A stretch of DNA of 42,611 nt from a virus (taxonomy: Duplodnaviria > Heunggongvirae > Uroviricota > Caudoviricetes): the IMG/VR virus record IMGVR_UViG_2897341779_000002; one strand, written 5' to 3'. The translations under genes were made by a program, and so were the position numbers. The first letter of the stretch is position 1; the number at the start of each line of letters is the position of its first letter. Under the pieces are notes generated by a model that had not been told where the DNA came from, ran no database searches, and saw only the letters and a list, made by a program, of their open reading frames with translations. Below are positions 27,302 to 41,214 of this stretch, one piece after another.

Positions 27302-28753
27302 ATGGCTACGTGGCAACAGGGTATTAATTCTGGTGGGTTTCTGGCTGGCATCGGTACGCAAAATGAGAATGCGCCAAAGGCAAGCGACATTAACGCAACG
27401 CTTGGTCTGATCCGCGAAAACAATGAACTGGCTCGATCAGGTGCAAATAACGTTGCTCTGACAGGTCTTCGTGGTCTGGCTGGAGTTGCTGATATTTATA
27501 AGCAGCAGCAAAAGCAGGAGCGTAAAGCGGCATTCCAGAAAGGTTATGCGGATGCTTATGCGTCCGGCGACAGGGAGCAGATGCGTAATCTTATTACAGC
27601 ATTCCCCGAAGAGTTTGAGGAAGTCCGTAAAGGCATGGGGTATGTCGATGACGCCCAGCGGGATGATTTTGGCAATCTGGCGCTTAAGGCTCAGGTCGCT
27701 TCGTCGCTTGGTCCGGGTGCATTTGGCAGGTTCATGATGGATAACGAAAAGGAGATGCGTCGTTTAGGTATCCCTCCAGAAACTATTGCGGAAATGCAGG
27801 TTAATGACCCGCAGGGCTTCCAGCACTTCGCAGGTAATCTGGCACTATTTTCTCTCGGTCATGAGAAGTATTTCGATATCAAAGATCAAATGGAAGGTCG
27901 GGATATTGAGCGTGGCAAGTTGGCAGAGACGATTCGCAGCAATAAAGCTGGGGAAGGTTTAAAGGCGCAAAGCATTGCTGTTAGCCGTGAAAACTCCCTG
28001 CGCACTGCTGGAGGTGCTGTTCCTGCATCTGTTAAAGAATATCAATATTTCAACAGCCTGTCTCCAGAGCAACAAAAGACATATCTTCGTGTTCGAGGTC
28101 GTCCTGATGCTGGCGGGGAGAATGTTGTGCAACTGGCAGATGGCAGAACGGTAACGGTTGGTAGGAAGCTTCACGGCGCTGGTGCTAATGCGTTCTACGA
28201 AGGAATAGACAACGAGGGCAATATGATTCGCGTCCCCGCCAGTTCTATTGCTGCTCCGGCTACATCGGCAGCTAATGCACAGAATTACGAAATGAAGAAA
28301 GATCTTGATGCAATTTCTGGCGCATCAATTGACGATCTTGGCTTCATGACAGGTATTACAGGTTCTTCAGGTTCTTTTGCTCTTGGTGCAGATATTCGTA
28401 GCAGGGCATCTGGTGTTGAGGAGAGGAGGCTATACAACGCTGCACAGCGAATCATGGGCAAAATGCAAAATCAGGGGATTGCAGCAGCCCGAGATATGGG
28501 GGCATCTGGCATCAACACCGAAGCAGAGGCCAATAGGTATTTTCAGGGTATGCCAAAGCCTGATTTCTCAAGTCCTGAAGCGCTGCAACAATCAATGCGC
28601 GACATTCAGCAATATACCGACAATTACAACCAGCAATATAACGTTAATGTTGGTAATGGCGGGAAGAAATCATCAAGGCAACAGCCAGCTACTCAGCAAT
28701 CAGCAGGAGGTAGCTACACGTCAAAATCAGGCATTCAATTTACGGTGGAATGA
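27302..28753 (+). CDS. ejection (injection) protein, gp20-like
   Basis: 483-aa ORF in the gene 20 position. Confidence 0.7.
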
Positions 28754-30765
28754 TGAAAGTAACTGCAAATGGTAAGACATTTACCTTTCCTGATGGTACG
28801 AGCACGGAAGATATTGGGTCCGCCATTGATGAGTATTTTGCTGGTCAGTCAGCGCCAACACAACAAGGTGTTCAGCAATCGCCAGCAGACAACTCACTTG
28901 CATCAGGATATGCACAGCTTGCCACTCAGCAGAAGGAAGGACTAGATCGCTCTGCTGAGCAAGGGGCTGTTTTAGGTGCTGCAATGCGCGATGCCGTTAC
29001 CGGTGAAAGCCGAATGACACCAGAAATGGAGAGACTGCAAAATGTTGGGGCTGCCCCTGAGTTGAACTCACTAAGCATGGATGCCCTGAAGGCTGGATGG
29101 TCTCAACTTTTCGGCTCCGACGCGTCTCAGGAAAAGATTCTTCAGAGTATGGGGGCGAAATTAAGGCAGGATGAGAAGGGTAACACTATCGTTTCCCTGC
29201 CATCCGGTGATTATGCCCTGAACAAGCCAGGTTTATCACCGCAAGACCTGACTTCGTTTCTTGCTAATGCGTTAGCGTTCACACCAGCGGGCAGGGCTGG
29301 AACGGTGCTTGGTGCCATAGGGAAATCAGCTGCTACAGATTTAGCACTACAGGGTGGCACCAGCCTTGCTGGCGGAGAAGATATTGATCCTGCACAAACG
29401 GTAATTTCTGCTGGCATTGGTGGTGTTGGCAAGGGGCTGGAAAATACAGTTAGTGCGGTTTCCAGGGCTGTTCGCGGTGAGATGTCACCGGAAGCAAAGG
29501 CTGCTGTCGATTTTGCGTCGGAAAGAAACCTGCCGTTAATGACCAGTGACACGCTGAAAGATAAAACCTTTATGCAGAGTCAGGCTCAGACATTAGGCGA
29601 AAGAGTTCCTTTTTTTGGAACCGGTAAGAATCGGCTGAATCAACAACAAGCACGAGAAAATTTAGTCAGAACATTTAGCGATGGTCTGGGTGGCATTTCT
29701 GATAAACAGCTTTATGAATCTGCGACTAAAGGGCAACAAAAATTCATTGAGGCAGCAGGAAAGCGATATAACCGCATAATTGACGCTATGGGGGATACCC
29801 CTGTCGATCTCTCAAACACGGTAAAAGCTATCGACAATCAGATTGCCGTGTTAAGCCGCCCGGGCAAATCTCAGGATAGAGCCGCGGTAAAAGTCTTGCA
29901 GCAATTTAAAGACGATATCACCAGCGGACCCAATGACCTGCGTCTGGCGAGAGAAAACAGAACTGACCTTCGAAAGCGGTTCATGAATTCAAACGAGACT
30001 GTTGATAAAGACACGCTCCAGAAAGCCAGCGATATTGTCTACAAGGCATATACAGCGGATATGAAAAAAGCAGTATCCCAAAAACTAGGCTCAGAAGAAG
30101 CTGCCAATATGTCTAGGGTTGATCGCTCATGGGCTAGATTCAATGACATGATGGGAAGAACGCGCGTTCAAAAGGCAATAGCCAGCGGCAAGGCTACACC
30201 TGAGGATGTAACAAAACTCGTTTTTAGCCAAAACCCATCAGAACGTTCTCAGCTTTACATGCTTCTGGATGACAATGGTAGGCAAAACGCACGAGCAGCC
30301 ATAGTTCAGAATGCTGTAGATAAGGCGACTGATCCGTCTGGAAATATTAGTGTTGAAAAGTTTATTAATGCGTTACACCGGAACAGGAAGCAATCAGCAA
30401 CTTTCTTTAAAGGCGTACATGGAAAGGAACTGGACGGCGTTATTAAATACCTCAACGATACAAGACACGCGGCAAAAGCGAACGTTCAAAACTTAAATGG
30501 TCAGCAGCTTTATGGATTGTTAGTTGGTGGTGGCATCATAAACGCAGCAGTATTAGCGGGGATGCTAAAAACGGCTGCGTTTGTTGTTCCTGCTGCTGGT
30601 GTCGTAGGAGGAGCTGCGAAGGCATACGAAAGCCCTGTTATACGAAATGCCTTGTTACGTCTGGCAAATACGCCAAAAGGTAGCACAGCATATGACAGAG
30701 CGATCAGTACGGTCACACAATCGCTCACCAGAGTCGCACAGGCATCACAAAAAGAAGCTCAATAA
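28750..30765 (+). CDS. ejection (injection) protein, gp16-like
   Basis: 671-aa ORF in the gene 16 position, overlapping the preceding stop. Confidence 0.7.
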
Positions 30766-30782: not shown

Positions 30783-31133
30783 CTAATTTTTATTCTTTGA
30801 TCTCGTCCACAGGTAAAGAAGAGCAATGGCAAGACAGGAAACAGAGAATAGATAACCTACCTCATATGGTGCGCCAAAAAAATTAGCTATTGATACGGGC
30901 AAAAAAGCCGAAGCGATCAGAATTGAAAGGCAAAAAATAAGCCCAGTAACATAGTTTATTAAACTCTTAAATGAGAAACGTTTTGCTTGATTTACGGTCT
31001 CAGCGAGTGATCGCTTAACGATGGATAAAAGCAAATAGATGGCGACAGTAGCTAATGCCCCTTTCCACCAGTCTGGATATAGTTTTGCGACAATCAGCCC
31101 AAGGAAAACCATGATGACAGACTGAGCATTCAC
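30783..31133 (-). CDS. small inner-membrane protein (three predicted TM helices) at the sieA position
   Basis: 116-aa hydrophobic ORF convergent with gp16; P22 carries sieA here. No sequence identity is claimed. Confidence 0.55.
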   Translation of the reverse strand: MNAQSVIMVFLGLIVAKLYPDWWKGALATVAIYLLLSIVKRSLAETVNQAKRFSFKSLINYVTGLIFCLSILIASAFLPVSIANFFGAPYEVGYLFSVSCLAIALLYLWTRSKNKN

Positions 31134-31308
31134 ACCAACCTCCTTAGTTTTGCGCAGGATACCAGATGATGTATAGGAGTGGGAGTAAAGTTAGTCGGTG
31201 ATAGAACGGTGGTTGCATAATGATATCACGTGACGTAAACTTATTGCGCATAGCGTGTATTCAATGGATGCATAGCTATTGATAATCTCCGATAAGAAGG
31301 AGGTTTGT

Positions 31309-31875
31309 ATGAGCAATGAGACTAATGGGATTGATGAAATGTTTAGCTTGAACGCTGCCAAAGCTGGAGTCGCAATAGGTTTGCTATTACAGCAAGCTTC
31401 TGCGTTCAGTTGTGAGGTGGTTGTTACTGATAACGTTCAGCACGCTTACCATCAATCCTCATTCAGCAGTGAACGGGCTAATGATGAGCTTCATGAGGCG
31501 GTGTCTTCGATTAAAGAATTGTCTCGAATGCTGAAATACGCTTATCGTGTTCTTGCAAACGCTACCGATGAGAATGTAGACAATGTGTTGTCTATCATTG
31601 AACCAGAAAAGTCTCGATTGATAGAGCATCAATTGAGAGGACTTGAAGGGGCAATGAAATCGGTATTCAAAGAAGCTTCTGCTGATTTTAAAGAGATCGC
31701 AAGAGATATCTATATCGTTGTTGCTGATGCCAGATCTGCCGTAACCAACCTGAATAGTCTTATTAAACAACGCTCATGTGTTCCGGTTGTTTTTGATAGT
31801 TCCGTAGATATGGCTGGTTTGCGTGCGCTTGCTGAGCACGGGACTCGTGTGTTTCACTCTGGTAACTTCCACTGA
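31309..31875 (+). CDS. hypothetical protein (188 aa), upstream partner of the YafO-like gene
   Basis: ATG 31309 preceded by AAGGAGG at 5-nt spacing; stop 31873..31875 lies 8 nt before the next ATG; no domain recognised. Confidence 0.7.
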   Translation: MSNETNGIDEMFSLNAAKAGVAIGLLLQQASAFSCEVVVTDNVQHAYHQSSFSSERANDELHEAVSSIKELSRMLKYAYRVLANATDENVDNVLSIIEPEKSRLIEHQLRGLEGAMKSVFKEASADFKEIARDIYIVVADARSAVTNLNSLIKQRSCVPVVFDSSVDMAGLRALAEHGTRVFHSGNFH

Positions 31876-31883
31876 GGTAAAAC

Positions 31884-32333
31884 ATGCAAGTAACCGTGGA
31901 ATATAATCAGGATAGTTTTGACTATTTTTTCTCCCCGGTTTTTGTTGAGTTTCCTGATTTAAAACAAACACTTGTAGATGATTTTATCATCTACAAGTCT
32001 ACGGGAACGTTGCCCAGCTATTTTGGCAGAGACACCTCTTATCATCGACCTCCTGATATTGAAGATGCAGGCCTTATGCACCTTCATTTAGCAATTGGTG
32101 AAAATAAATTTGAGCCAATAAAAAATGGCACAGATATCAGCACACCGCAAAAGTTGCAGTGGCATAAAACATCCAATACCGCTCTCGTTTATGCACAAAA
32201 TCTTTTTGATGAGAACAGGTATTCATTGATTGCTCTTTTTCATCCTGTAGCTCACATGTCTGCTAACAATCATAATAGAATGAGAGTGTTAGCAGGGTAT
32301 GCGAGAGACTTTAGAAACACTATGTTTGACTAA
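31884..32333 (+). CDS. YafO-family toxin-like protein
   Basis: 149-aa product shares motifs with E. coli YafO as I recall it: DFIIYKSTGTLPSYFGRD vs DFISYKRDGVLPDIFGRD; HLHLA vs HIHLA; ALVYAQNLFDE vs HLVYCQGAFDE; SLIALFHPVAH...NNHNRM vs LLIAILKPEPH...RDNNQM. Confidence 0.7.
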   Translation: MQVTVEYNQDSFDYFFSPVFVEFPDLKQTLVDDFIIYKSTGTLPSYFGRDTSYHRPPDIEDAGLMHLHLAIGENKFEPIKNGTDISTPQKLQWHKTSNTALVYAQNLFDENRYSLIALFHPVAHMSANNHNRMRVLAGYARDFRNTMFD

Positions 32334-32334
32334 A

Positions 32335-32357
32335 CCCACCGTCAGGTGGGTTTTTTA
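32335..32357 (+). terminator. terminator hairpin between the convergent YafO-like and ClpP-like genes
   Basis: CCCACC-GTCA-GGTGGG followed by TTTTTTAT. Confidence 0.55.
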
Positions 32358-32381
32358 TAAGGAGTAATCATGATTTACCCA

Positions 32382-32918
32382 TCAAACAACCCACCAGTTT
32401 GCCTGATTGGATGCCAGCCTTGCAGTTTTTATGGAATTAATTATGCCATGCTCAAGAGCCTTGTTAGCATCCAAAATGGTCGAGTCTGCTATCAGGGATG
32501 CCCACCTAATATGGGTTCCGATGTCGATATTGAACGTCTCAACGAAGCGATCAAGATCGTTATCGAGGCATTTCCCGTACTCTCTCAATCTGGCATGGTC
32601 GGCGGCTGGGGAGGCAAAGCACCATAATAGAGGATGTAACAGGAATCTTGATAATGGGTTTGCGAAACGTTCTGAGCCAGCCAGGAAAACGATATTAGCT
32701 ATGGATTCAACATTGCTTATGTTGTGAGTTCTAACGGTAACAGGGAGTGACTTAAGAAAGTTATACGCAGTAAAGCCAGCAGCAGTTTCCCCTCCCTGAC
32801 TTGATATATGGATATTTAATTCAGTTGCGCCTTGAGATAATGCGGTGAGACAGTGGTTCTGAAGTTGCCCAACAGTGGCAGTGTTAACAGGGCATAAGAA
32901 ATGAATTGTGTGCAGCAT
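32382..32918 (-). CDS. ClpP/S14-S49-fold serine peptidase-like protein (178 aa)
   Basis: ISSQGGETAAGFTAYNFL aligns with the ClpP INSPGG...AG segment and a His is conserved near LHPLLW; ATG overlaps the mnt stop (TAATG). Confidence 0.6.
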   Translation of the reverse strand: MLHTIHFLCPVNTATVGQLQNHCLTALSQGATELNIHISSQGGETAAGFTAYNFLKSLPVTVRTHNISNVESIANIVFLAGSERFANPLSRFLLHPLLWCFASPAADHARLREYGKCLDNDLDRFVETFNIDIGTHIRWASLIADSTILDANKALEHGIINSIKTARLASNQANWWVV

Positions 32919-33166
32919 TATTTTTCATCCTTAGCATACATGGTCTTTAGCGTCTCAAGTAGCGCCTCTTTGAATTTATCAGCTTCTTGCTGAGCAAATG
33001 ACTCAACTGACTTTGGCGACCTATCTTCATCAATCGCGGCTTGCAAAATCATGACGATCTCGGAGTTAACAGAGCGACCATTTTTTGATGCTCTGACAGC
33101 AAGAGCCTCGCGTAAAGATTCAGGGATTCTTACCGTAGTTGGAGAAATTGACACACCCTTTGCCAT
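32918..33166 (-). CDS. mnt: Mnt repressor (ribbon-helix-helix)
   Basis: From the internal Met the 82-aa product MAKGVSISPTTVRIPESLREALAVRASKNGRSVNSEIVMILQAA... resembles P22 Mnt (NGRSMNSE motif). Confidence 0.8.
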   Translation of the reverse strand: MAKGVSISPTTVRIPESLREALAVRASKNGRSVNSEIVMILQAAIDEDRSPKSVESFAQQEADKFKEALLETLKTMYAKDEK

Positions 33167-33280
33167 ATAACACCTTTGGTATTCAATTTGATAGCAAAGT
33201 GTATGCAAAAAAATTTTGACTAGATATACTCACTTTGCTATCTTTTGTATTCGAAAAGAGTTGTTTGCGTGGAGGGTAAC
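33167..33280. promoter_or_regulatory. immI control region (Pant/Pmnt with operator-like inverted repeat)
   Basis: Perfect 11-bp inverted repeat ATAGCAAAGTG (33203..33213) / CACTTTGCTAT (33231..33241) flanking TTGACT; TATCTT follows 17 bp after TTGACT; lies between divergent mnt and arc. Confidence 0.55.
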
Positions 33281-33433
33281 ATGGAGAAAGAAATAAGTAA
33301 GATTTTGGTAAGGATGCCGCAGTCGTTAAAGGATGCTATCGGTAGCAGGGCAAAGGAAGAGTGCAGGTCGTTTAACTCAGAGGTTATCAAGCGCCTGATA
33401 GACAGCCTGAAGAGAGAGGGGGTAACGGTGTGA
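33281..33433 (+). CDS. arc: Arc repressor (ribbon-helix-helix)
   Basis: 50-aa product from ATG 33281 (GGAGGG RBS): MEKEISKILVRMPQSLKDAIGSRAKEECRSFNSEVIKRLIDSLKREGVTV, resembling P22 Arc. Confidence 0.8.
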   Translation: MEKEISKILVRMPQSLKDAIGSRAKEECRSFNSEVIKRLIDSLKREGVTV

Positions 33434-33665
33434 TTCGCTTGGATGCAGTAGTCAAAGAGATTGCGATTACCATTTTAAGACCAAATTTTGTTCATGGCGA
33501 ATCATTTGGCACGAACGAAAAATTGAGAAGAGAAAGAGTATTCAGTGGCAAGCGCACGTTTTCAGAAGTGATGCTTGATGCGGCAAAGAAATCAAAACAG
33601 TGAAGCCCCAACTGCTGGAACAGTCAGGGCTTCGGTTGTCGGTAAATCCGTGGAGAAAAACCAAC

Positions 33666-34568
33666 ATGAATAGTATAGCAATTTTAGAAGCAGTGAACAC
33701 CTCTTACGTGCCATTCAACGGTCAGCAAATTATCACCGCCATGGCTGCCGGAGTTGCATATGTTGCGATGAAGCCAATCGTTGAAAACCTCGGAATGAGC
33801 TGGTCAACGCAGCAAACAAAACTCATGAAGCAGATTAGCAAATTCAACTGTGTTCATATGAACATGGTTGCCGCTGATGGTAAGCTTCGTAAGCTACTCT
33901 GCCTTCCTTTGAAGAAGTTAAATGGATGGCTGTTCAGCATCAACCCTGAGAAAGTTCGTGCTGACATCCGCGATAAACTGATTCAGTACCAGGAAGAATG
34001 CTTTACTGTGCTGCATGACTACTGGACAAAGGGAGAGGCAGCAAATGCACGGAAGAAAACATCTGTTGATGACAGGACTCCGCTTCGTGATGCTGTAAAT
34101 ATGCTAGTCAGCAAAAAGCATCTAATGTACCCAGAAGCTTATGCAATGATTCATCAGCGTTTCAATGTGGAAAGTATTGAAGAGCTTGATGCATCTCAGA
34201 TACCACAAGCAGTAGAGTACATCCACAGGGTAGTGCTTGAAGGTGAGTTCATCGGCAAACAAGAGAAGAAAACCAACGAGCTTTCTGCAAAAGAAGCAAA
34301 CAGCCTTGTATGGCTATGGGATTATGCCAACCGCTCACAGGCATTATTCCGCGAACTGTATCCGGCGCTAAAACAAATTCAATCGAACTATTCCGGCAGA
34401 TGTCATGACTGCGGTTATGAGTTCTCCCGTATTATCGATATGGCGAGAGACGTTTTAATCAATCACACACGAGATGTTGATATCAATGAGCCAGACGGAC
34501 CAACGAATCTTTCCGCATGGATGAGACTTAAGAATAAAGAATTACCTCCTTCAGTACATAATTACTGA
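33666..34568 (+). CDS. ant: antirepressor Ant
   Basis: From [43 protein letters not shown]... the 300-aa product matches the P22 Ant N-terminus and length from memory. Confidence 0.85.
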
Positions 34569-34697: not shown

Positions 34698-34890
34698 TGC
34701 GTATTTTCATGAAAGGAGATCACTCAATAACTTCCATCGAGATCGGGTAATAACATTTGAACAGATCGCTGAATAACATCGATGGAGATCACTTTTGACT
34801 CATTTTGTTATTCAGTGATCTCCATCAATGTTATTGGAACTTCACAGGTGTGTTGATCTGTATCTTTTGCCATTCCGGTAAAGGATACCT

Positions 34891-36432
34891 ATGCCAACAG
34901 TTCCAATTTCTATGAGAAAACTTAAAGAAATTCTTAGGCTTAAATACGGTGTTGGACTCAGCCATCGACAAATTGGTCGTAGTCTTGCAATCTCCCCTTC
35001 CGTTGTATCCAGATATGCTAATCGGGCGGCTCAACTTGGCATAAAGCAGTGGCCCTTACCTACAGGATGGGATGATACAAAACTAAAACATGCGTTCCTT
35101 CAGACCCAGGTTAAGATGAAGAAGCACTCTCTGCCTGACTGGGCTACAGTACACCGGGAACTGCGTAATAAATGCGTGACGCTGCAGCTACTCTGGGAAG
35201 AATACTGTGAGCGTAATCCAGGCGGTTTTTACAGCTATAACCATTACTGCCGGATGTACCGTGAATGGCTCAAAACCACTTCACCATCAATGCGTCAGGT
35301 ACATAAAGCTGGCGAAAAACTTTTCGTTGATTACTGTGGACCTACCGTTGGCGTTACCGACCCTGAGACCGGAGAAATAAGAACTGCTCAGGTCATCGTA
35401 GCTGTTCTCGGGGCATCAAGTTACACATGGGCAGAGGCCACCTGGTCTCAGCAGCTTGAAGACTGGGTGATGAGTCATGTTCGCTGCTTCCAGTGGTTGG
35501 GTGGCGTTCCTGAACTTGTTGTTCCGGACAATCTGAAAAGCGCCACATCCAGGGCATGTAAGTATGATCCTGACGTTAACCCTACCTACCAGCAGATGCT
35601 TGAGCATTATAATGTCGCAGTTTTGCCTGCGCGGCCACGTAAACCGAAAGATAAAGCCAAAGCTGAAGTTGGCGTTCAGGTTGTTGAACGCTGGATCATG
35701 GCCCGAATCAGGCATGAGATCTTCTACAGCCTTGCATCGCTTAATCAGCGCATTCGGGAGTTGCTGGAAAGACTGAATAACAAAATAATGCAGAAGTTGG
35801 GTTATTCACGTGCAGAACTCTTCATCCAGCTTGATAAACCCGCACTGAAGCCTCTTCCTGAAGCCAGTTACAGTTACACCCTGGTGAAGAAAGTCAGAGT
35901 TCATGCCGATTACCACGTGGAAATCGACAAACATTACTACTCGGTTCCATGTTCGCTGTTAGGCCAGCAACTGGAAGCATGGATCTCCGGAGAACTGGTA
36001 AGACTCTTCAATCAGGGGCAGGAGGTTGCTGTGCACCCGCGCAAGCGTACTTATGGCTACAGTACCCGCAACGAGCACATGCCTGAAGCTCATCGACAGC
36101 ATGCCACCTGGACGCCAGAGCGTCTTCTGGAATGGGCGGGGCACATAGGCAGTGAAACTCATAGTTATGTGCTTCATATACTGAACTCTCGTCCACATCC
36201 GGAACAAAGCTATCGCTTCTGCCTTGGACTCCTGAACCTTCATAAAAAATACAGTAAAGCCAGACTTAATGCAGCATGTGCAAGAGCTCTGAAAACAAAG
36301 GTATGGCGTCTGTCAGGTATTAAATCGATCCTGGAAAAAGGTCTGGATAAACAACCTGTTCAGGATCCAAAACCAGATCTGTTATCCACGATGGAACACG
36401 AAAACGTACGCGGCAGTGAGTATTACCACTGA
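34891..36432 (+). CDS. istA: IS21-family transposase IstA
   Basis: 513-aa ORF with N-terminal HTH-like segment and DDE-type integrase core, immediately followed by istB. Confidence 0.85.
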   Translation: MPTVPISMRKLKEILRLKYGVGLSHRQIGRSLAISPSVVSRYANRAAQLGIKQWPLPTGWDDTKLKHAFLQTQVKMKKHSLPDWATVHRELRNKCVTLQLLWEEYCERNPGGFYSYNHYCRMYREWLKTTSPSMRQVHKAGEKLFVDYCGPTVGVTDPETGEIRTAQVIVAVLGASSYTWAEATWSQQLEDWVMSHVRCFQWLGGVPELVVPDNLKSATSRACKYDPDVNPTYQQMLEHYNVAVLPARPRKPKDKAKAEVGVQVVERWIMARIRHEIFYSLASLNQRIRELLERLNNKIMQKLGYSRAELFIQLDKPALKPLPEASYSYTLVKKVRVHADYHVEIDKHYYSVPCSLLGQQLEAWISGELVRLFNQGQEVAVHPRKRTYGYSTRNEHMPEAHRQHATWTPERLLEWAGHIGSETHSYVLHILNSRPHPEQSYRFCLGLLNLHKKYSKARLNAACARALKTKVWRLSGIKSILEKGLDKQPVQDPKPDLLSTMEHENVRGSEYYH

Positions 36433-36443
36433 TACGGGATCCA

Positions 36444-37193
36444 ATGATGAATCATCTTTACGAACAACTGACCGCACTTAAACTCACCGGCTTCCGTGAT
36501 GCGCTTAAAAAGCAACTTGCTCAGCCGGGCACATACCAGGAGCTGGGCTTCGAAGAACGCCTGTCATTACTGACAGCAGAAGAACTAACCTGCCGTGAAA
36601 ACAGGAAGGCAGAGCGTCTGATCAAACATGCACGGTTCAGACTTAATGCTGAGTTATCAAAGCTGGATTATCGTAACAATAGAGGGCTGGACAGGGCCCT
36701 CATCCGTTCACTCAGTCAGGGAAACTGGTTAACCCTGAAACAAAATATTTTACTGACCGGGGCCACCGGCAGCGGTAAAACGTTCCTGGCATGTGCACTT
36801 GGTCATAATGCCTGCCGACAGGGATACAAGGTCTACTATTATCGCCTTAAAGCGCTGATGGAACAGTGCTATCAGGGGCATGCTGATGGAAGATACAGCA
36901 AACTTTTGACCAGGCTGAATAATAGCGATCTGCTGCTTCTGGATGACTGGGGGCTGGAACCTCTCTCATCAGAACAGCGTAGCGACCTGCTGGAAATAGT
37001 GGATCTGATGTACCAACGAGGCTCAATCATCGTAGTGAGCCAGTTGCCGGTGGAAAACTGGTACAAAATGATCGGAGACTCCACACATGCGGATGCCATC
37101 CTAGATCGACTGGTTCATGGCAGTATCAAGATCGAACTTAAAGGAGAATCAATGCGGAAAATACAATCACCGTTGACCGAAGGAGATCAGTGA
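36444..37193 (+). CDS. istB: IS21-family helper ATPase IstB
   Basis: 249-aa ORF with Walker A LTGATGSGKTFLACAL and Walker B LLLLDDWG. Confidence 0.9.
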   Translation: MMNHLYEQLTALKLTGFRDALKKQLAQPGTYQELGFEERLSLLTAEELTCRENRKAERLIKHARFRLNAELSKLDYRNNRGLDRALIRSLSQGNWLTLKQNILLTGATGSGKTFLACALGHNACRQGYKVYYYRLKALMEQCYQGHADGRYSKLLTRLNNSDLLLLDDWGLEPLSSEQRSDLLEIVDLMYQRGSIIVVSQLPVENWYKMIGDSTHADAILDRLVHGSIKIELKGESMRKIQSPLTEGDQ

Positions 37194-37287
37194 AGGTAAT
37201 TTAAAAACGGTTCTGTGAAAGTGACACGAACCGATCTCCATCGATGTTACTCACCGATCTCCTTCACGGTAATACGCAATTGTATCG

Positions 37288-40353: not shown

Positions 40354-41214
40354 ATGTTAAGACTCAAGACTCAAGACTCAAGACTCAAGACTCAAGACTC
40401 AAGACTCAAGACTCAAGACTCAAGACTCAAGACTCAAGACTCAAGACTCAAGACTCAAGACTCAAGACTCAAGACTCAAGACTCAAGACTCAAGACTCAA
40501 GACTCAAGACTCAAGACTCAAGACTCAAGACTCAAGACTCAAGACTCAAGACTCAAGACTCAAGACTCGTTTTCCGTTGATGATAATGGGTCAGGTAATG
40601 TTTTTGTATGTGGAGATCTTGTAAATAGCAAAGAGAATAAAGTTCAGTTCAATGGAAACAATAACAAACTTATTATAGAAGATGATGTTGAGTGTCGATG
40701 GCTTACCGTAATATTTAGGGGTGATAATAATTACGTAAGAATACATAAAAACAGTAAGATTAAAGGTGATATTGTCGCAACAAAAGGTTCAAAAGTTATT
40801 ATCGGTAGAAGAACGACAATAGGTGCAGGTTTTGAAGTCGTCACTGATAAGTGCAATGTTACAATTGGCCATGACTGCATGATAGCAAGAGATGTTATTT
40901 TGCGTGCATCAGATGGGCATCCTATATTTGATATTCATAGCAAAAAAAGGATTAATTGGGCAAAAGATATCATTATATCTAGTTACGTATGGGTAGGGAG
41001 AAATGTCTCTATAATGAAAGGAGTATCTGTTGGAAGCGGATCTGTCATTGGGTATGGGAGTATTGTAACTAAAGATGTGCCATCTATGTGTGCAGCAGCC
41101 GGTAATCCAGCAAAAATAATAAAAAGAAATATAATATGGGCAAGAACGGATAAAGCGGAGCTAATTAGTGATGACAAGAGATGCTCCAGCTATCATGCGA
41201 AGCTCACGCAATAA
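40354..41214 (+). CDS. neuO: phase-variable polysialic acid O-acetyltransferase NeuO-like (hexapeptide-repeat acyltransferase)
   Basis: 286-aa ORF: N-terminal RLKTQDS x10 encoded by AAGACTC heptads, then left-handed beta-helix hexapeptide repeats (IGAGFEV, IGHDCMI, VGRNVSI, VGSGSVI, IGYGSIV); location downstream of the tailspike as described for CUS-3. Confidence 0.85.
   Translation: MLRLKTQDSRLKTQDSRLKTQDSRLKTQDSRLKTQDSRLKTQDSRLKTQDSRLKTQDSRLKTQDSRLKTQDSFSVDDNGSGNVFVCGDLVNSKENKVQFNGNNNKLIIEDDVECRWLTVIFRGDNNYVRIHKNSKIKGDIVATKGSKVIIGRRTTIGAGFEVVTDKCNVTIGHDCMIARDVILRASDGHPIFDIHSKKRINWAKDIIISSYVWVGRNVSIMKGVSVGSGSVIGYGSIVTKDVPSMCAAAGNPAKIIKRNIIWARTDKAELISDDKRCSSYHAKLTQ
40359..40568 (+). repeat. 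30 tandem copies of the heptanucleotide AAGACTC inside the neuO 5' coding region
   Basis: Counted directly: 210 bp of perfect AAGACTC repeats = 30 units, a multiple of 3, so the reading frame is maintained. Confidence 0.9.

Follow-up and report, generated by a model that had tools for sequence, protein, structure and literature searches.

Three adjacent ant-moron slots, probably exchanged independently, between gp16 and mnt in a CUS-3-type prophage of Escherichia coli K1

The window analyzed here is a 42,611-nucleotide stretch of DNA, which is the prophage of an E. coli K1 strain. It is a CUS-3-type P22-like prophage and matches those of E. coli S88 and APEC O1 at 100% identity. A previous sequence-only reading had placed four open reading frames in the interval from gp16 to mnt, and all four were found where it had put them. 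Its assignment of the two flanks was also confirmed. The left flank is the gene for a P22-gp16-family DNA ejection protein (28750-30765, plus strand), the last late gene ahead of the cargo region, and the identical copy in S88 carries the annotation 'P22-gp16 family phage DNA ejection protein'. The right flank is the mnt/arc/sar/ant immI region. It contains mnt (32918-33166, minus strand; an Arc/Mnt-family ribbon-helix-helix repressor; Pfam Arc, E=9.5e-11), the arc repressor (33281-33433, plus strand; Pfam Arc, E=9.6e-12), the sar antisense RNA (33599-33665, minus strand; Rfam RF00262, 83.9 bits against a gathering score of 43), and the ant antirepressor (33666-34568, plus strand; Pfam P22_AR_N and P22_AR_C). 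The RefSeq annotation agrees for mnt, arc, and ant, and ant forms the right end of the cargo region. Apart from sar, an Rfam scan gave just a weak sroH match here, which is the terminator hairpin. The immI control region (33190-33244) consists of a 12-nt perfect inverted repeat (33190-33201 and 33231-33242) and a promoter-like site, TTGACT-17 nt-TATCTT. The GC content across the accessory interval is 0.38-0.47, compared with about 0.5 in the structural genes.

The first cargo position (slot 1; 30783-31133, minus strand) codes for a 116-aa membrane protein, with a GTG start 5 nt after AAGGAGG. The protein had been described as having three helices, but four hydrophobic segments (residues 1-22, 23-39, 57-88, and 90-111) were counted from its hydrophobicity. 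The gene lies 17 nt after gp16 and is convergent with it. P22 sieA holds the identical place and orientation (22 nt after gene 16, convergent), which bears out the proposal that this is the sieA position. SieA proteins fall into types A-C and carry the motif FxRYPxEAxxFNK (PMC10883804). The 116-aa protein was rejected as a SieA homologue (BLASTP E=0.29; hhalign probability 0.7%), and the motif was not found in its sequence. It matched no family in Pfam, PHROG, or PADLOC, the NCBIfam scan was uninformative too, and tblastn against isolated phages returned no match. Its family comprises 19 clusters, which are confined to Enterobacterales. In 11 relatives, slot 1 is occupied by true SieA or by other small proteins, mostly membrane or secreted ones, and in a sister E. 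coli prophage it holds a genuine SieA that is 93% identical to that of P22. Judging from position and protein type, the slot-1 product is most likely an envelope-acting factor that would be expressed in the lysogen, such as a superinfection-exclusion factor.

The second position (slot 2) is a two-gene cassette. Its downstream gene (31884-32333, plus strand) codes for a 149-aa toxin of the YafO family, whose members are ribosome-dependent mRNA interferases, and the earlier YafO-like assignment was well supported by Pfam (YafO_toxin, PF13957; E=3.4e-22, 78.9 bits against a cut-off of 25), with a match spanning profile positions 3-101 of 101. The protein is 38% identical to YafO of E. coli K-12 (E=7e-20) and retains the YafO core columns FGRD, H66, LVY-Q, and H124. 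Its score for the NCBIfam equivalog PRK09885 (79 bits against a cut-off of 153) led us to reject orthology to chromosomal YafO; by these sequence comparisons, it is a member of the YafO family and not an orthologue of the chromosomal toxin. The AF2 model from the single sequence was unusable (pLDDT 37), and a PDB sequence search found no solved relative.

The upstream gene (31309-31875, plus strand, with AGGAGG before the ATG) codes for a 188-aa all-helical protein, the putative antitoxin or partner, and the YafO-like gene begins 8 nt beyond it. This protein falls in PHROG 8416, of unknown function. Pfam and PADLOC searches with 21 members of its family found neither a known family nor a DNA-binding domain, the NCBIfam scan gave nothing informative, and no similarity to YafN was seen. 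A weak ZorA match in PADLOC (E=0.004) was absent from the rest of the family. The AF2 model is a helical bundle with a low-confidence C-terminal helix; fold searches with it gave generic matches alone, and a PDB search with the family profile gave matches at chance level (best E=0.031). The family is rare, since clustering at 90% identity gives 6 clusters and clustering at 50% gives 24 in two protein libraries, the latter among 1.84 billion representative proteins, and a scan across species-representative genomes found nothing. Its last 30 residues are its best-conserved part and are modelled as a helix after a disordered linker.

The 188-aa family is followed by a PF13957 gene, with a gap of about 2-12 nt, in all 7 of the contexts examined, and the pairing persists down to 22-24% identity. 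The pair was seen in P22-like ant morons, among lambda-like tail genes, in HK639, in the tail region of a myovirus, and in a further Arc/Ant region. The cassette has the layout of a type II toxin-antitoxin system, namely small co-oriented genes, tight spacing, and the putative antitoxin gene upstream; the 188-aa protein is, however, neither a member of a known antitoxin family nor a carrier of a YafN/RelB-type DNA-binding domain. No palindrome upstream of the 188-aa gene is conserved across relatives, and the candidate operator TCACGTGA, present in the window, was discarded because relatives do not keep it.

Promoter-like and terminator-like elements had been proposed to separate three transcription units in the interval. 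The promoter-like separators did not stand out from chance, with 6 consensus matches found and 6.0 expected in shuffled sequences. The divergent intergenic control region (31134-31308) travels with the YafO cassette and is conserved in five prophages with unrelated slot-1 genes; within it, the conserved TTGCAT-17 nt-TAAACT (31213-31241) is a candidate promoter. The terminator-like separators were borne out in part. The hairpin at 32332-32353, common to the convergent YafO and ClpP-like genes, is convincing, with a perfect 9-bp stem, -14.9 kcal/mol, z=-3.5, and a U6 tail on the plus strand, and the annotation of phage Emek lists it as a terminator. The one that follows gp16 is weak (z=-0.6). 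Homology to phiv205-1/EC.P3 begins at the hairpin at 32332-32353, which doubles as the recombination junction of the YafO cassette.

The third position (slot 3; 32382-32918, minus strand) codes for a 178-aa N-terminally truncated ClpP paralogue. Its earlier ClpP-like label agrees with Pfam (CLP_protease, E=2.2e-11, 44.4 bits against a cut-off of 20.2), and it scores far under every cut-off of the NCBIfam ClpP equivalogs. S72 and H95 are invariant in the family, and the position of E. coli D171 is S146 here. Among 21 family members, this third triad position is Ala in 12, Ser in 8, and Thr in 1, and never Asp; the canonical Ser-His-Asp triad of the 178-aa protein is thus incomplete, with Ser and His but without Asp. 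The 23 N-terminal residues of mature E. coli ClpP are missing, and the N-terminal axial loops, which serve in gating and in ClpX/ClpA docking, are absent. The closest characterized relative is PpClpP1 (PDB 9UXT; E=1.6e-35, residues 3-175), with which the protein shares full-length homology, N-terminal truncation, and Ser-His with a non-acidic third residue. PpClpP1 of Pseudomonas plecoglossicida co-assembles with canonical ClpP (PMC12900304).

The start codon of the ClpP-like gene overlaps the stop codon of mnt (TAATG at 32918), so the gene belongs to the mnt operon as its second gene, and the right border of the presumed island therefore cuts an operon. The ClpP-like gene is thus not a separate unit, and the division of the interval into three transcription units falls with this translational coupling. 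The two genes are fused in every relative seen, even where the immI module sits among lambda-like tail genes. Copies of the ClpP-like gene in other genera mostly stand alone, antisense to the phage genes around them (3 contexts in one set and 7 of 8 loci in another). From the translational coupling to mnt, we infer that the protein is made in the lysogen. Homology to PpClpP1 suggests that it would form an open-pored, weakly active tetradecamer that alone would not dock ClpX, and that co-assembly with host ClpP might alter ClpXP-type proteolysis.

The interval had been regarded as accessory, and it is indeed variable. The full set is present in just 50 of 5,426 complete E. coli genomes, as a block of about 100% identity, and across P22-like relatives it was not found to be a universally conserved set with a known role. 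It does not behave as one island, since its three parts differ in distribution: of the same 5,426 genomes, 279 have matches to the slot-1 region, 54 carry the YafO cassette (every copy at 99% identity or more), and 127 carry the ClpP-like gene. The YafO cassette is found beside mnt where the ClpP-like gene is missing and slot 1 holds other genes, and the ClpP-like gene is found with other cassettes, among them Panacea-type ones. This variability is not new, having been known since 2008. The region is the rapidly changing 'ant moron' of P22-like phages. A comparison of sixteen genomes, CUS-3 and the APEC O1 prophage among them, distinguished ten types of it and drew the CUS-3 and APEC-1 versions as six-gene morons (Villafane et al., 2008; PMC2629481). 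As in other morons, the cargo is present, absent, or replaced among otherwise syntenic relatives, and it is ordinary prophage mosaicism at a described hotspot. On balance, we favor the view that the gp16-mnt interval is made up of three neighboring, independently exchanged ant-moron slots, each with its proposed function.

The interval had also been suggested as a place to look for an undescribed prophage-encoded defense. None of its genes matched a known defense model in PADLOC (PADLOC-DB v2), which agrees with the word 'undescribed', since any defense encoded here would then be a new one. Literature searches on ClpP-like prophage genes, on YafO in phage defense, and by the RefSeq protein accessions of the interval genes found no study of these genes. 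A role in anti-phage defense is a plausible hypothesis for the interval. In slot 2, the 188-aa protein is most likely an antitoxin that would grip the YafO-like toxin by the conserved C-terminal helix and hold it in check. If the partner were lost, titrated, or not replenished, for example by phage-induced shut-off or loss of the prophage, the freed toxin would be expected to cut ribosome-bound mRNA and stop growth, which may result in abortive infection and/or prophage addiction. The toxicity of the cassette, its neutralization, and its trigger are predictions of this scheme; the gene pairing is observed directly.

Several other explanations deserve consideration, and two of them concern the cassette. 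It might be a selfish addiction or stabilization module that kills cells, or halts their growth, once they have lost the prophage or the cassette, and that plays no role against other phages. The classic type II layout, the mobility of the cassette together with its own upstream region and terminator, and its near-clonal state in E. coli (at least 99% identity in 54 of 54 genomes) are what such a module would show; yet the cassette is seen only in phage genomes, at moron sites where sister phages hold other toxin-antitoxin cassettes. This siting is the pattern of phage-borne defense hotspots, and addiction and defense are compatible. A purely selfish role is possible but leans to the unlikely side. 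Alternatively, the 188-aa protein may be exported or membrane-anchored and not an antitoxin, and the pair may work in a non-classical way, for instance through an envelope sensor with control over an RNase in the cytoplasm. Its N-terminus resembles a signal peptide or membrane anchor, chiefly in distant homologues, which have a K/R n-region, a 10-15-aa hydrophobic core, and an AxA-like end; such an N-terminus would not fit a classical cytoplasmic antitoxin. The segment in the window is uncharged and rich in Ala, Gly, and Leu, and no DNA-binding domain was detected in the family. However, homologues as little as 28% identical keep GLL(L/M)QQ in this segment, and such conservation is not usual in signal peptides; the acidic N-extension of the window subfamily gives a net negative n-region, and the segment is helical in the AF2 model, at moderate confidence. 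Export is hence an improbable explanation, and a C-terminal grip by a true antitoxin is preferred. The partner may also be membrane-associated through its N-terminal segment and may free the ribosome-dependent RNase on phage entry. A sensing antitoxin of this kind would place the YafO pair beside a non-SieA membrane protein at the injection site. The ClpP-like protein may likewise be a co-assembly device in lysogens, leading to superinfection immunity or tighter lysogeny. We give these two readings, with host ClpXP/ClpAP reprogrammed by the mnt-coupled ClpP in the one and the 188-aa protein as a new, large sensing antitoxin in the other, a low probability.

Other alternatives turn on the ClpP-like gene. 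It may be a part of immI regulation that clears leaky Ant, or Arc/Mnt, to stabilize or tune lysogeny. It is coupled to mnt translationally in every E. coli relative and moves into lambda-like phages with the whole ant-arc-mnt module, but no mnt or ant was seen nearby in prophages of Klebsiella, Proteus, Chromobacterium, Pantoea, Erwinia, and Rahnella, and P22 has only the unrelated orf59a at this position; we regard a regulatory role as rather unlikely. A capsid (head) maturation protease is almost certainly the wrong identification, even though the top PHROG and NCBIfam matches are ClpP-related head maturation proteases and the copy in phage phiv205-1 is so annotated. P22-type capsids mature without a protease. 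All NCBIfam matches were far under their cut-offs (49 bits against 120 or 475; for NF045542, 49.3 bits against 120), and this candidate was rejected. The gene is antisense to the late operon, lies in the immI region fused to the mnt operon, and is missing in P22 and in many relatives with the same kind of virion gene set, and the best solved relative, by a wide margin, is a bacterial ClpP paralogue. A protease beside a toxin-antitoxin pair is suggestive, since breakdown by Lon or Clp proteases is the classic fate of type II antitoxins. All four genes could be one undescribed defense system that works only as a unit, in which the membrane protein would serve as sensor or effector, YafO would be the toxin, and the 188-aa antitoxin would be degraded by the ClpP-like protease; the genes are adjacent, and the block is 100% conserved in 50 genomes. 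The near-identical block, though, is most simply explained by common descent (as in S88, APEC O1, and strains named as ST95, for example), every part is found elsewhere in the absence of the others, and the ClpP-like family is a lone gene in other genera, with no YafO neighbor. A four-gene system was therefore ruled out on the distribution of its parts, and both the unit and the roles assigned within it are very improbable.

In the favored arrangement of three exchangeable slots, the gp16-mnt region behaves as an ordered array in which a slot of the SieA type is followed by one for toxin-antitoxin cassettes and then by one coupled to mnt, and in P22-like prophages this array could be mined systematically for injection blockers and toxin-antitoxin-type defenses. 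Should the modules prove active, ST95/K1 strains of extra-intestinal pathogenic E. coli, such as S88, APEC O1, and their relatives, would carry three uncharacterized lysogen-expressed functions in their CUS-3 prophage. These might shape susceptibility to therapeutic K1 phages and also the stability of the CUS-3 prophage, which controls capsule O-acetylation. The putative partner would be a new antitoxin type for a known toxin, from a rare, phage-restricted, and previously unannotated family. The link between a recently solved 'atypical ClpP' and phage cargo genes changes how that family may be interpreted; if the ClpP reading is true, the published 'bacterial paralogue' PpClpP1 would belong to a family widespread as prophage cargo.

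The closest known systems resemble these modules in part. Similar to the slot-1 protein, P22 SieA is a small multi-pass inner-membrane protein whose gene lies directly downstream of gene 16 and convergent to it, but SieA has 164 aa or more, compared with 116 aa here, and the two have no sequence or profile similarity. PpClpP1 and the 178-aa protein are both about 180 aa long, can be aligned over their full length, share the N-terminal truncation, and keep Ser and His with a non-Asp residue at the third position. This residue is Pro in PpClpP1, whereas it is Ser here and Ala, Ser, or Thr across the family. The present family also has a conserved C-terminal (N/R)WWV motif, where the 9UXT alignment ends in QW, and the present gene is prophage cargo co-transcribed with mnt; the word 'prophage' is not used in the PpClpP1 paper (PMC12900304). 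Given Ser instead of Pro and an only moderate identity (about 45%, estimated from the alignment), hetero-assembly with E. coli ClpP is an extrapolation from PpClpP1. As in the chromosomal YafNO system, the slot-2 toxin belongs to the same Pfam family, has the conserved core, and comes second in a tight operon of two genes; in contrast to YafNO, the cassette is phage-borne, and the protein encoded upstream is all-helical, has twice the size of YafN and no sequence relation to it, and lacks a recognizable DNA-binding domain. PanAT cassettes, with Panacea-domain antitoxins, fill the same slot in the same orientation in sister prophages, between the slot-1 gene and ClpP-mnt, showing that slot 2 is a site for toxin-antitoxin cassettes, although the proteins are unrelated and the YafO cassette has no Panacea domain. 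Finally, the region as a whole corresponds to the ant moron, or immI-sieA region, located between gene 16 and the tailspike gene 9 with mnt, arc, sar, and ant. P22 carries sieA and orf59a there, and the present prophage carries an unrelated 4-TM protein, the YafO cassette, and the truncated ClpP; in both, a convergent membrane-protein gene directly follows gene 16 and an extra gene lies between mnt and the terminator.

Three modules that are independent of one another make up the gp16-to-mnt interval (30783-32918); one of them is part of the mnt operon. ORF calling confirmed four ORFs, comprising a membrane protein gene in slot 1 (116 aa, 30783-31133, minus strand), a two-gene cassette in slot 2 (188 aa, 31309-31875, and 149 aa, 31884-32333, both on the plus strand), and a ClpP-like gene in slot 3 (178 aa, 32382-32918, minus strand). 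The sequence-only reading was right that the interval is accessory, as its cargo parts vary independently among E. coli genomes and relatives. However, its proposal of a single island does not hold, since the distributions of the parts differ. In a set of 5,426 complete E. coli genomes, 279 matched the slot-1 region, 127 had the ClpP-like gene, and 54 had the cassette, with every cassette copy at least 99% identical. All parts occurred together in only 50 of the 5,426, and the block was about 100% identical throughout. The GC content across the cargo interval falls to 0.38-0.47. No cargo gene matched any model of known defence systems in PADLOC, in agreement with the suggestion that a defence encoded here would be undescribed. 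The cargo consists of a new putative antitoxin partner of a known toxin family, a phage-borne member of an atypical ClpP type that was characterised only recently, and, in the SieA slot, a membrane protein that is uncharacterised.

Three transcription units separated by promoter-like and terminator-like elements had been proposed. The terminator-like part was borne out by a hairpin at 32332-32353, the only strong terminator in the interval, but a scan for generic promoter motifs found no enrichment in the region. The ATG of the ClpP-like gene overlaps the stop codon of mnt (32918-33166, minus strand) in the sequence TAATG at 32918, and the two genes adjoin each other in all relatives seen. The ClpP-like gene thus belongs to the mnt operon, as its distal member, and does not form a third unit.

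The three-slot layout recurs in the sampled relatives. Slot 1 holds a small gene after gp16 and convergent with it. Across 11 cases, it encoded the four-segment membrane protein of the window, a genuine SieA sharing 93% identity with that of P22, a member of the YobH family, a 62-aa protein with two segments, or proteins anchored at the N-terminus or the C-terminus; no hydrophobic segment was detected in the remaining two proteins, one of which begins with a short signal-like stretch. Slot 2, on the plus strand, holds the 188-aa/YafO cassette, a Panacea-domain antitoxin gene followed by a gene for a 139-160-aa protein, or other small genes. The Panacea arrangement fills slot 2 in sister prophages at the related loci L027:2581-3448, L002:4132-4998, and L008:4737-5186; the 139-160-aa protein shows a weak C-terminal resemblance to the Menshen protein NsnC (E about 9e-6), and the Panacea gene is shortened to 91 aa in phiv205-1. 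Slot 3 contains the ClpP-like gene fused to mnt, is empty, or contains other small genes downstream of mnt. In some relatives, the YafO cassette abuts mnt and the ClpP-like gene is missing; the cassette also occurs with other slot-1 genes.

In a comparison with MBT-5, homology breaks at about 31170, some 37 nt ahead of the start codon of the slot-1 gene, and the right breakpoint of the cassette is the terminator hairpin (32332). A 175-bp region upstream of the 188-aa gene is kept among cassettes even with different slot-1 genes; it contains the divergent slot-1 gene's RBS and, at 31213-31241, a conserved TTGCAT-17-TAAACT that is a candidate promoter. The slot-1 RBS and 5' leader (ACCAACCTCCTTAGTTTTG on the plus strand; 31134-31170) are conserved in five prophages (relatives compared: L003, L017, L018, and L020) while the coding sequences are unrelated, indicating that slot-1 genes are exchanged exactly at the start codon.

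The identification of a YafO-like protein in slot 2 was upheld. The 149-aa protein is a firm member of the YafO family (78.9 bits in Pfam, where the cut-off is 25), shares 38% identity with K-12 YafO (E=7e-20), and retains the FGRD, HxHL, LVYxQ, and late His residues conserved with it. The family of the 188-aa protein is very small, with 6 clusters at 90% identity among 5.8 billion sequences searched and 24 clusters at 50% identity among 1.84 billion representatives searched. Searches of 21 members against Pfam and PADLOC revealed no domain, and the 188-aa protein is not similar to YafN. The partner gene is followed, after about 2-12 nt, by a PF13957 gene of 145-149 aa in all contexts examined, and this pairing persists at 65%, 54%, 38%, 33%, 24%, and 22% identity. 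The backbones carrying the pair are unrelated, including P22-like ant morons, lambda-like tail genes, HK639, a myovirus tube/tape-measure region, and another Arc/Ant region. In phage HK639, the pair has tape-measure/lipoprotein genes on one side and a gene for a minor tail protein on the other, and a terminator is annotated immediately downstream of the pair. Because the pairing is conserved across unrelated backbones, these sequences strongly suggest that the two genes form a functional module.

In the AF2 model of the 188-aa protein (pLDDT 70), a long helical bundle (54-155) is followed by a disordered linker and a C-terminal helix (168-183). This helix carries the most conserved sequence of the family, ...DM.GL..LA.HGT..F.SG.FH, and its placement behind a linker resembles the toxin-binding tail of an antitoxin. 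Cleavage of ribosome-bound mRNA by YafO is established. By analogy, slot 2 most likely encodes a type II toxin-antitoxin module whose toxin would cut ribosome-bound mRNA. The toxin would be released on loss or titration of its partner, and the outcome might be abortive infection, prophage addiction, or both. Within the first 37 residues of the 188-aa protein (31309-31420), residues 16-35 resemble a signal peptide or membrane anchor, as do the N-termini of distant homologues (P0083-P0089), which would be unexpected and does not fit the model of a cytoplasmic antitoxin.

The slot-3 protein, as proposed, has a ClpP fold by Pfam. Its family, of about 180 aa and with hosts in Enterobacterales and Chromobacterium, has invariant Ser72 and His95, and the position equivalent to Asp171 of ClpP is Ser in the window protein and Asp in no family member. 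The 23 N-terminal residues forming the axial loops of ClpP are absent. An almost invariant (N/R)WWV at the C-terminus (32382-32393; family alignment A2) is not present in canonical ClpP. This family is phage cargo in the loci seen. The gene is antisense to its neighbours between lysis and terminase genes in Klebsiella, next to the N gene in Proteus, and among lysis and tail genes in Chromobacterium. Eight further loci came from species-representative genomes; at seven of them, the gene stands alone on the plus strand with runs of minus-strand genes on either side, and the PHROG matches of the neighbours are tape measure, baseplate, sheath, terminase, and portal proteins. Every E. coli copy is coupled to mnt, even in the case in which the entire ant-arc-mnt-ClpP module is situated between the lambda-like tail genes L and K. 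The ClpP-like protein would be made in the lysogen together with mnt, which requires a repressed prophage.

Among solved structures, 9UXT (E=1.6e-35; runner-up about 1e-7), PpClpP1 of Pseudomonas plecoglossicida, is by far the closest relative. PpClpP1 is N-terminally truncated and has a Ser-His-Pro triad; its homotetradecamer has a wide pore and low activity and does not bind ClpX, and with canonical ClpP it forms a more active heterotetradecamer able to bind ClpX (PMC12900304). The third triad residue thus differs, being Pro in PpClpP1 and Ser in the window protein. The word "prophage" is absent from that paper (PMC12900304). The homology to PpClpP1 makes it likely that the ClpP-like protein assembles with the ClpP of the host.

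The window, 42.6 kb in length, represents a complete P22-like (Lederbergvirus-type) prophage of the CUS-3 kind. Its cargo region and flanks match the prophages of E. coli S88, APEC O1, and many further human and bird isolates at 100% identity. In the S88 annotation, the ejection genes gp7/gp20/gp16 are followed by the four cargo genes, mnt, arc, a small ORF, ant, and the tailspike gene. Elsewhere, the prophage encodes an endosialidase tailspike, a hexapeptide acetyltransferase, and an IntS-type integrase. An IS21-family element (34698-37278; istA 34891-36432, istB 36444-37193) with a 5-bp target duplication is inserted 29 nt into the tailspike gene, with E. coli S88 as reference, and the window prophage, with this gene interrupted, probably does not make infectious virions. 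At the 5' end of the acetyltransferase ORF (40354-41214), which encodes the phase-variable neoO-type K1 capsule O-acetyltransferase of CUS-3, 30 perfect tandem AAGACTC copies (40359-40568) keep the reading frame open. The sar antisense RNA was found by Rfam (33599-33665, 83.9 bits), so the immI region (mnt/arc/sar/ant) is complete. The window contains arc (33281-33433) as well as this high-scoring sar, whereas a 2008 comparison reported that CUS-3-type ant morons seemingly lack arc (PMC2629481). A 57-aa ORF between arc and ant (33430-33603) overlaps the arc stop codon, is labelled hypothetical in RefSeq, and differs in length among relatives; a profile scan found no family for it.

The slot-1 protein is a small membrane protein, as had been proposed, but with four hydrophobic segments instead of three helices. 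Pfam, PADLOC, and PHROG scans assigned it to no family. It is limited to Enterobacterales (19 clusters at at least 71% identity), with highly conserved stretches VFLGLIVAKLYPDWWKG and PYEVGYL, and its gene also follows gp16-type genes outside immI contexts. In E. coli E597, U12A, and 2015C-3108 (L005, L006, and L007), a 129-aa version is encoded behind gp16-type genes in another element, close to ykgL/dinD, with ImmA/IrrE, PerC, and Doc-toxin genes among its neighbours; in one of these genomes, only a remnant without gp16 remains. SieA has three types sharing the motif FxRYPxEAxxFNK, and P22 SieA excludes CUS-3 itself (Leavitt et al., PMC10883804). Homology of the slot-1 protein to SieA was ruled out by BLASTP, profile comparison, and the missing SieA motif. 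By analogy, an exclusion-type role might be argued from position, orientation, and membrane character only.

That the gp16-mnt region is variable has been described before. Villafane et al. gave the name "ant moron" to the stretch from gene 16 to gene 9; they distinguished ten types across sixteen genomes, explicitly including the six-gene CUS-3, UTI-1, and APEC-1 versions, and P22's was then the sole version studied (PMC2629481). The sieA position was also correctly recognised, as P22 sieA has the same place and orientation, lying on the opposite strand 22 nt after gene 16, and mnt is followed by orf59a and then a terminator. The skeleton of the region is that of P22, with different cargo.
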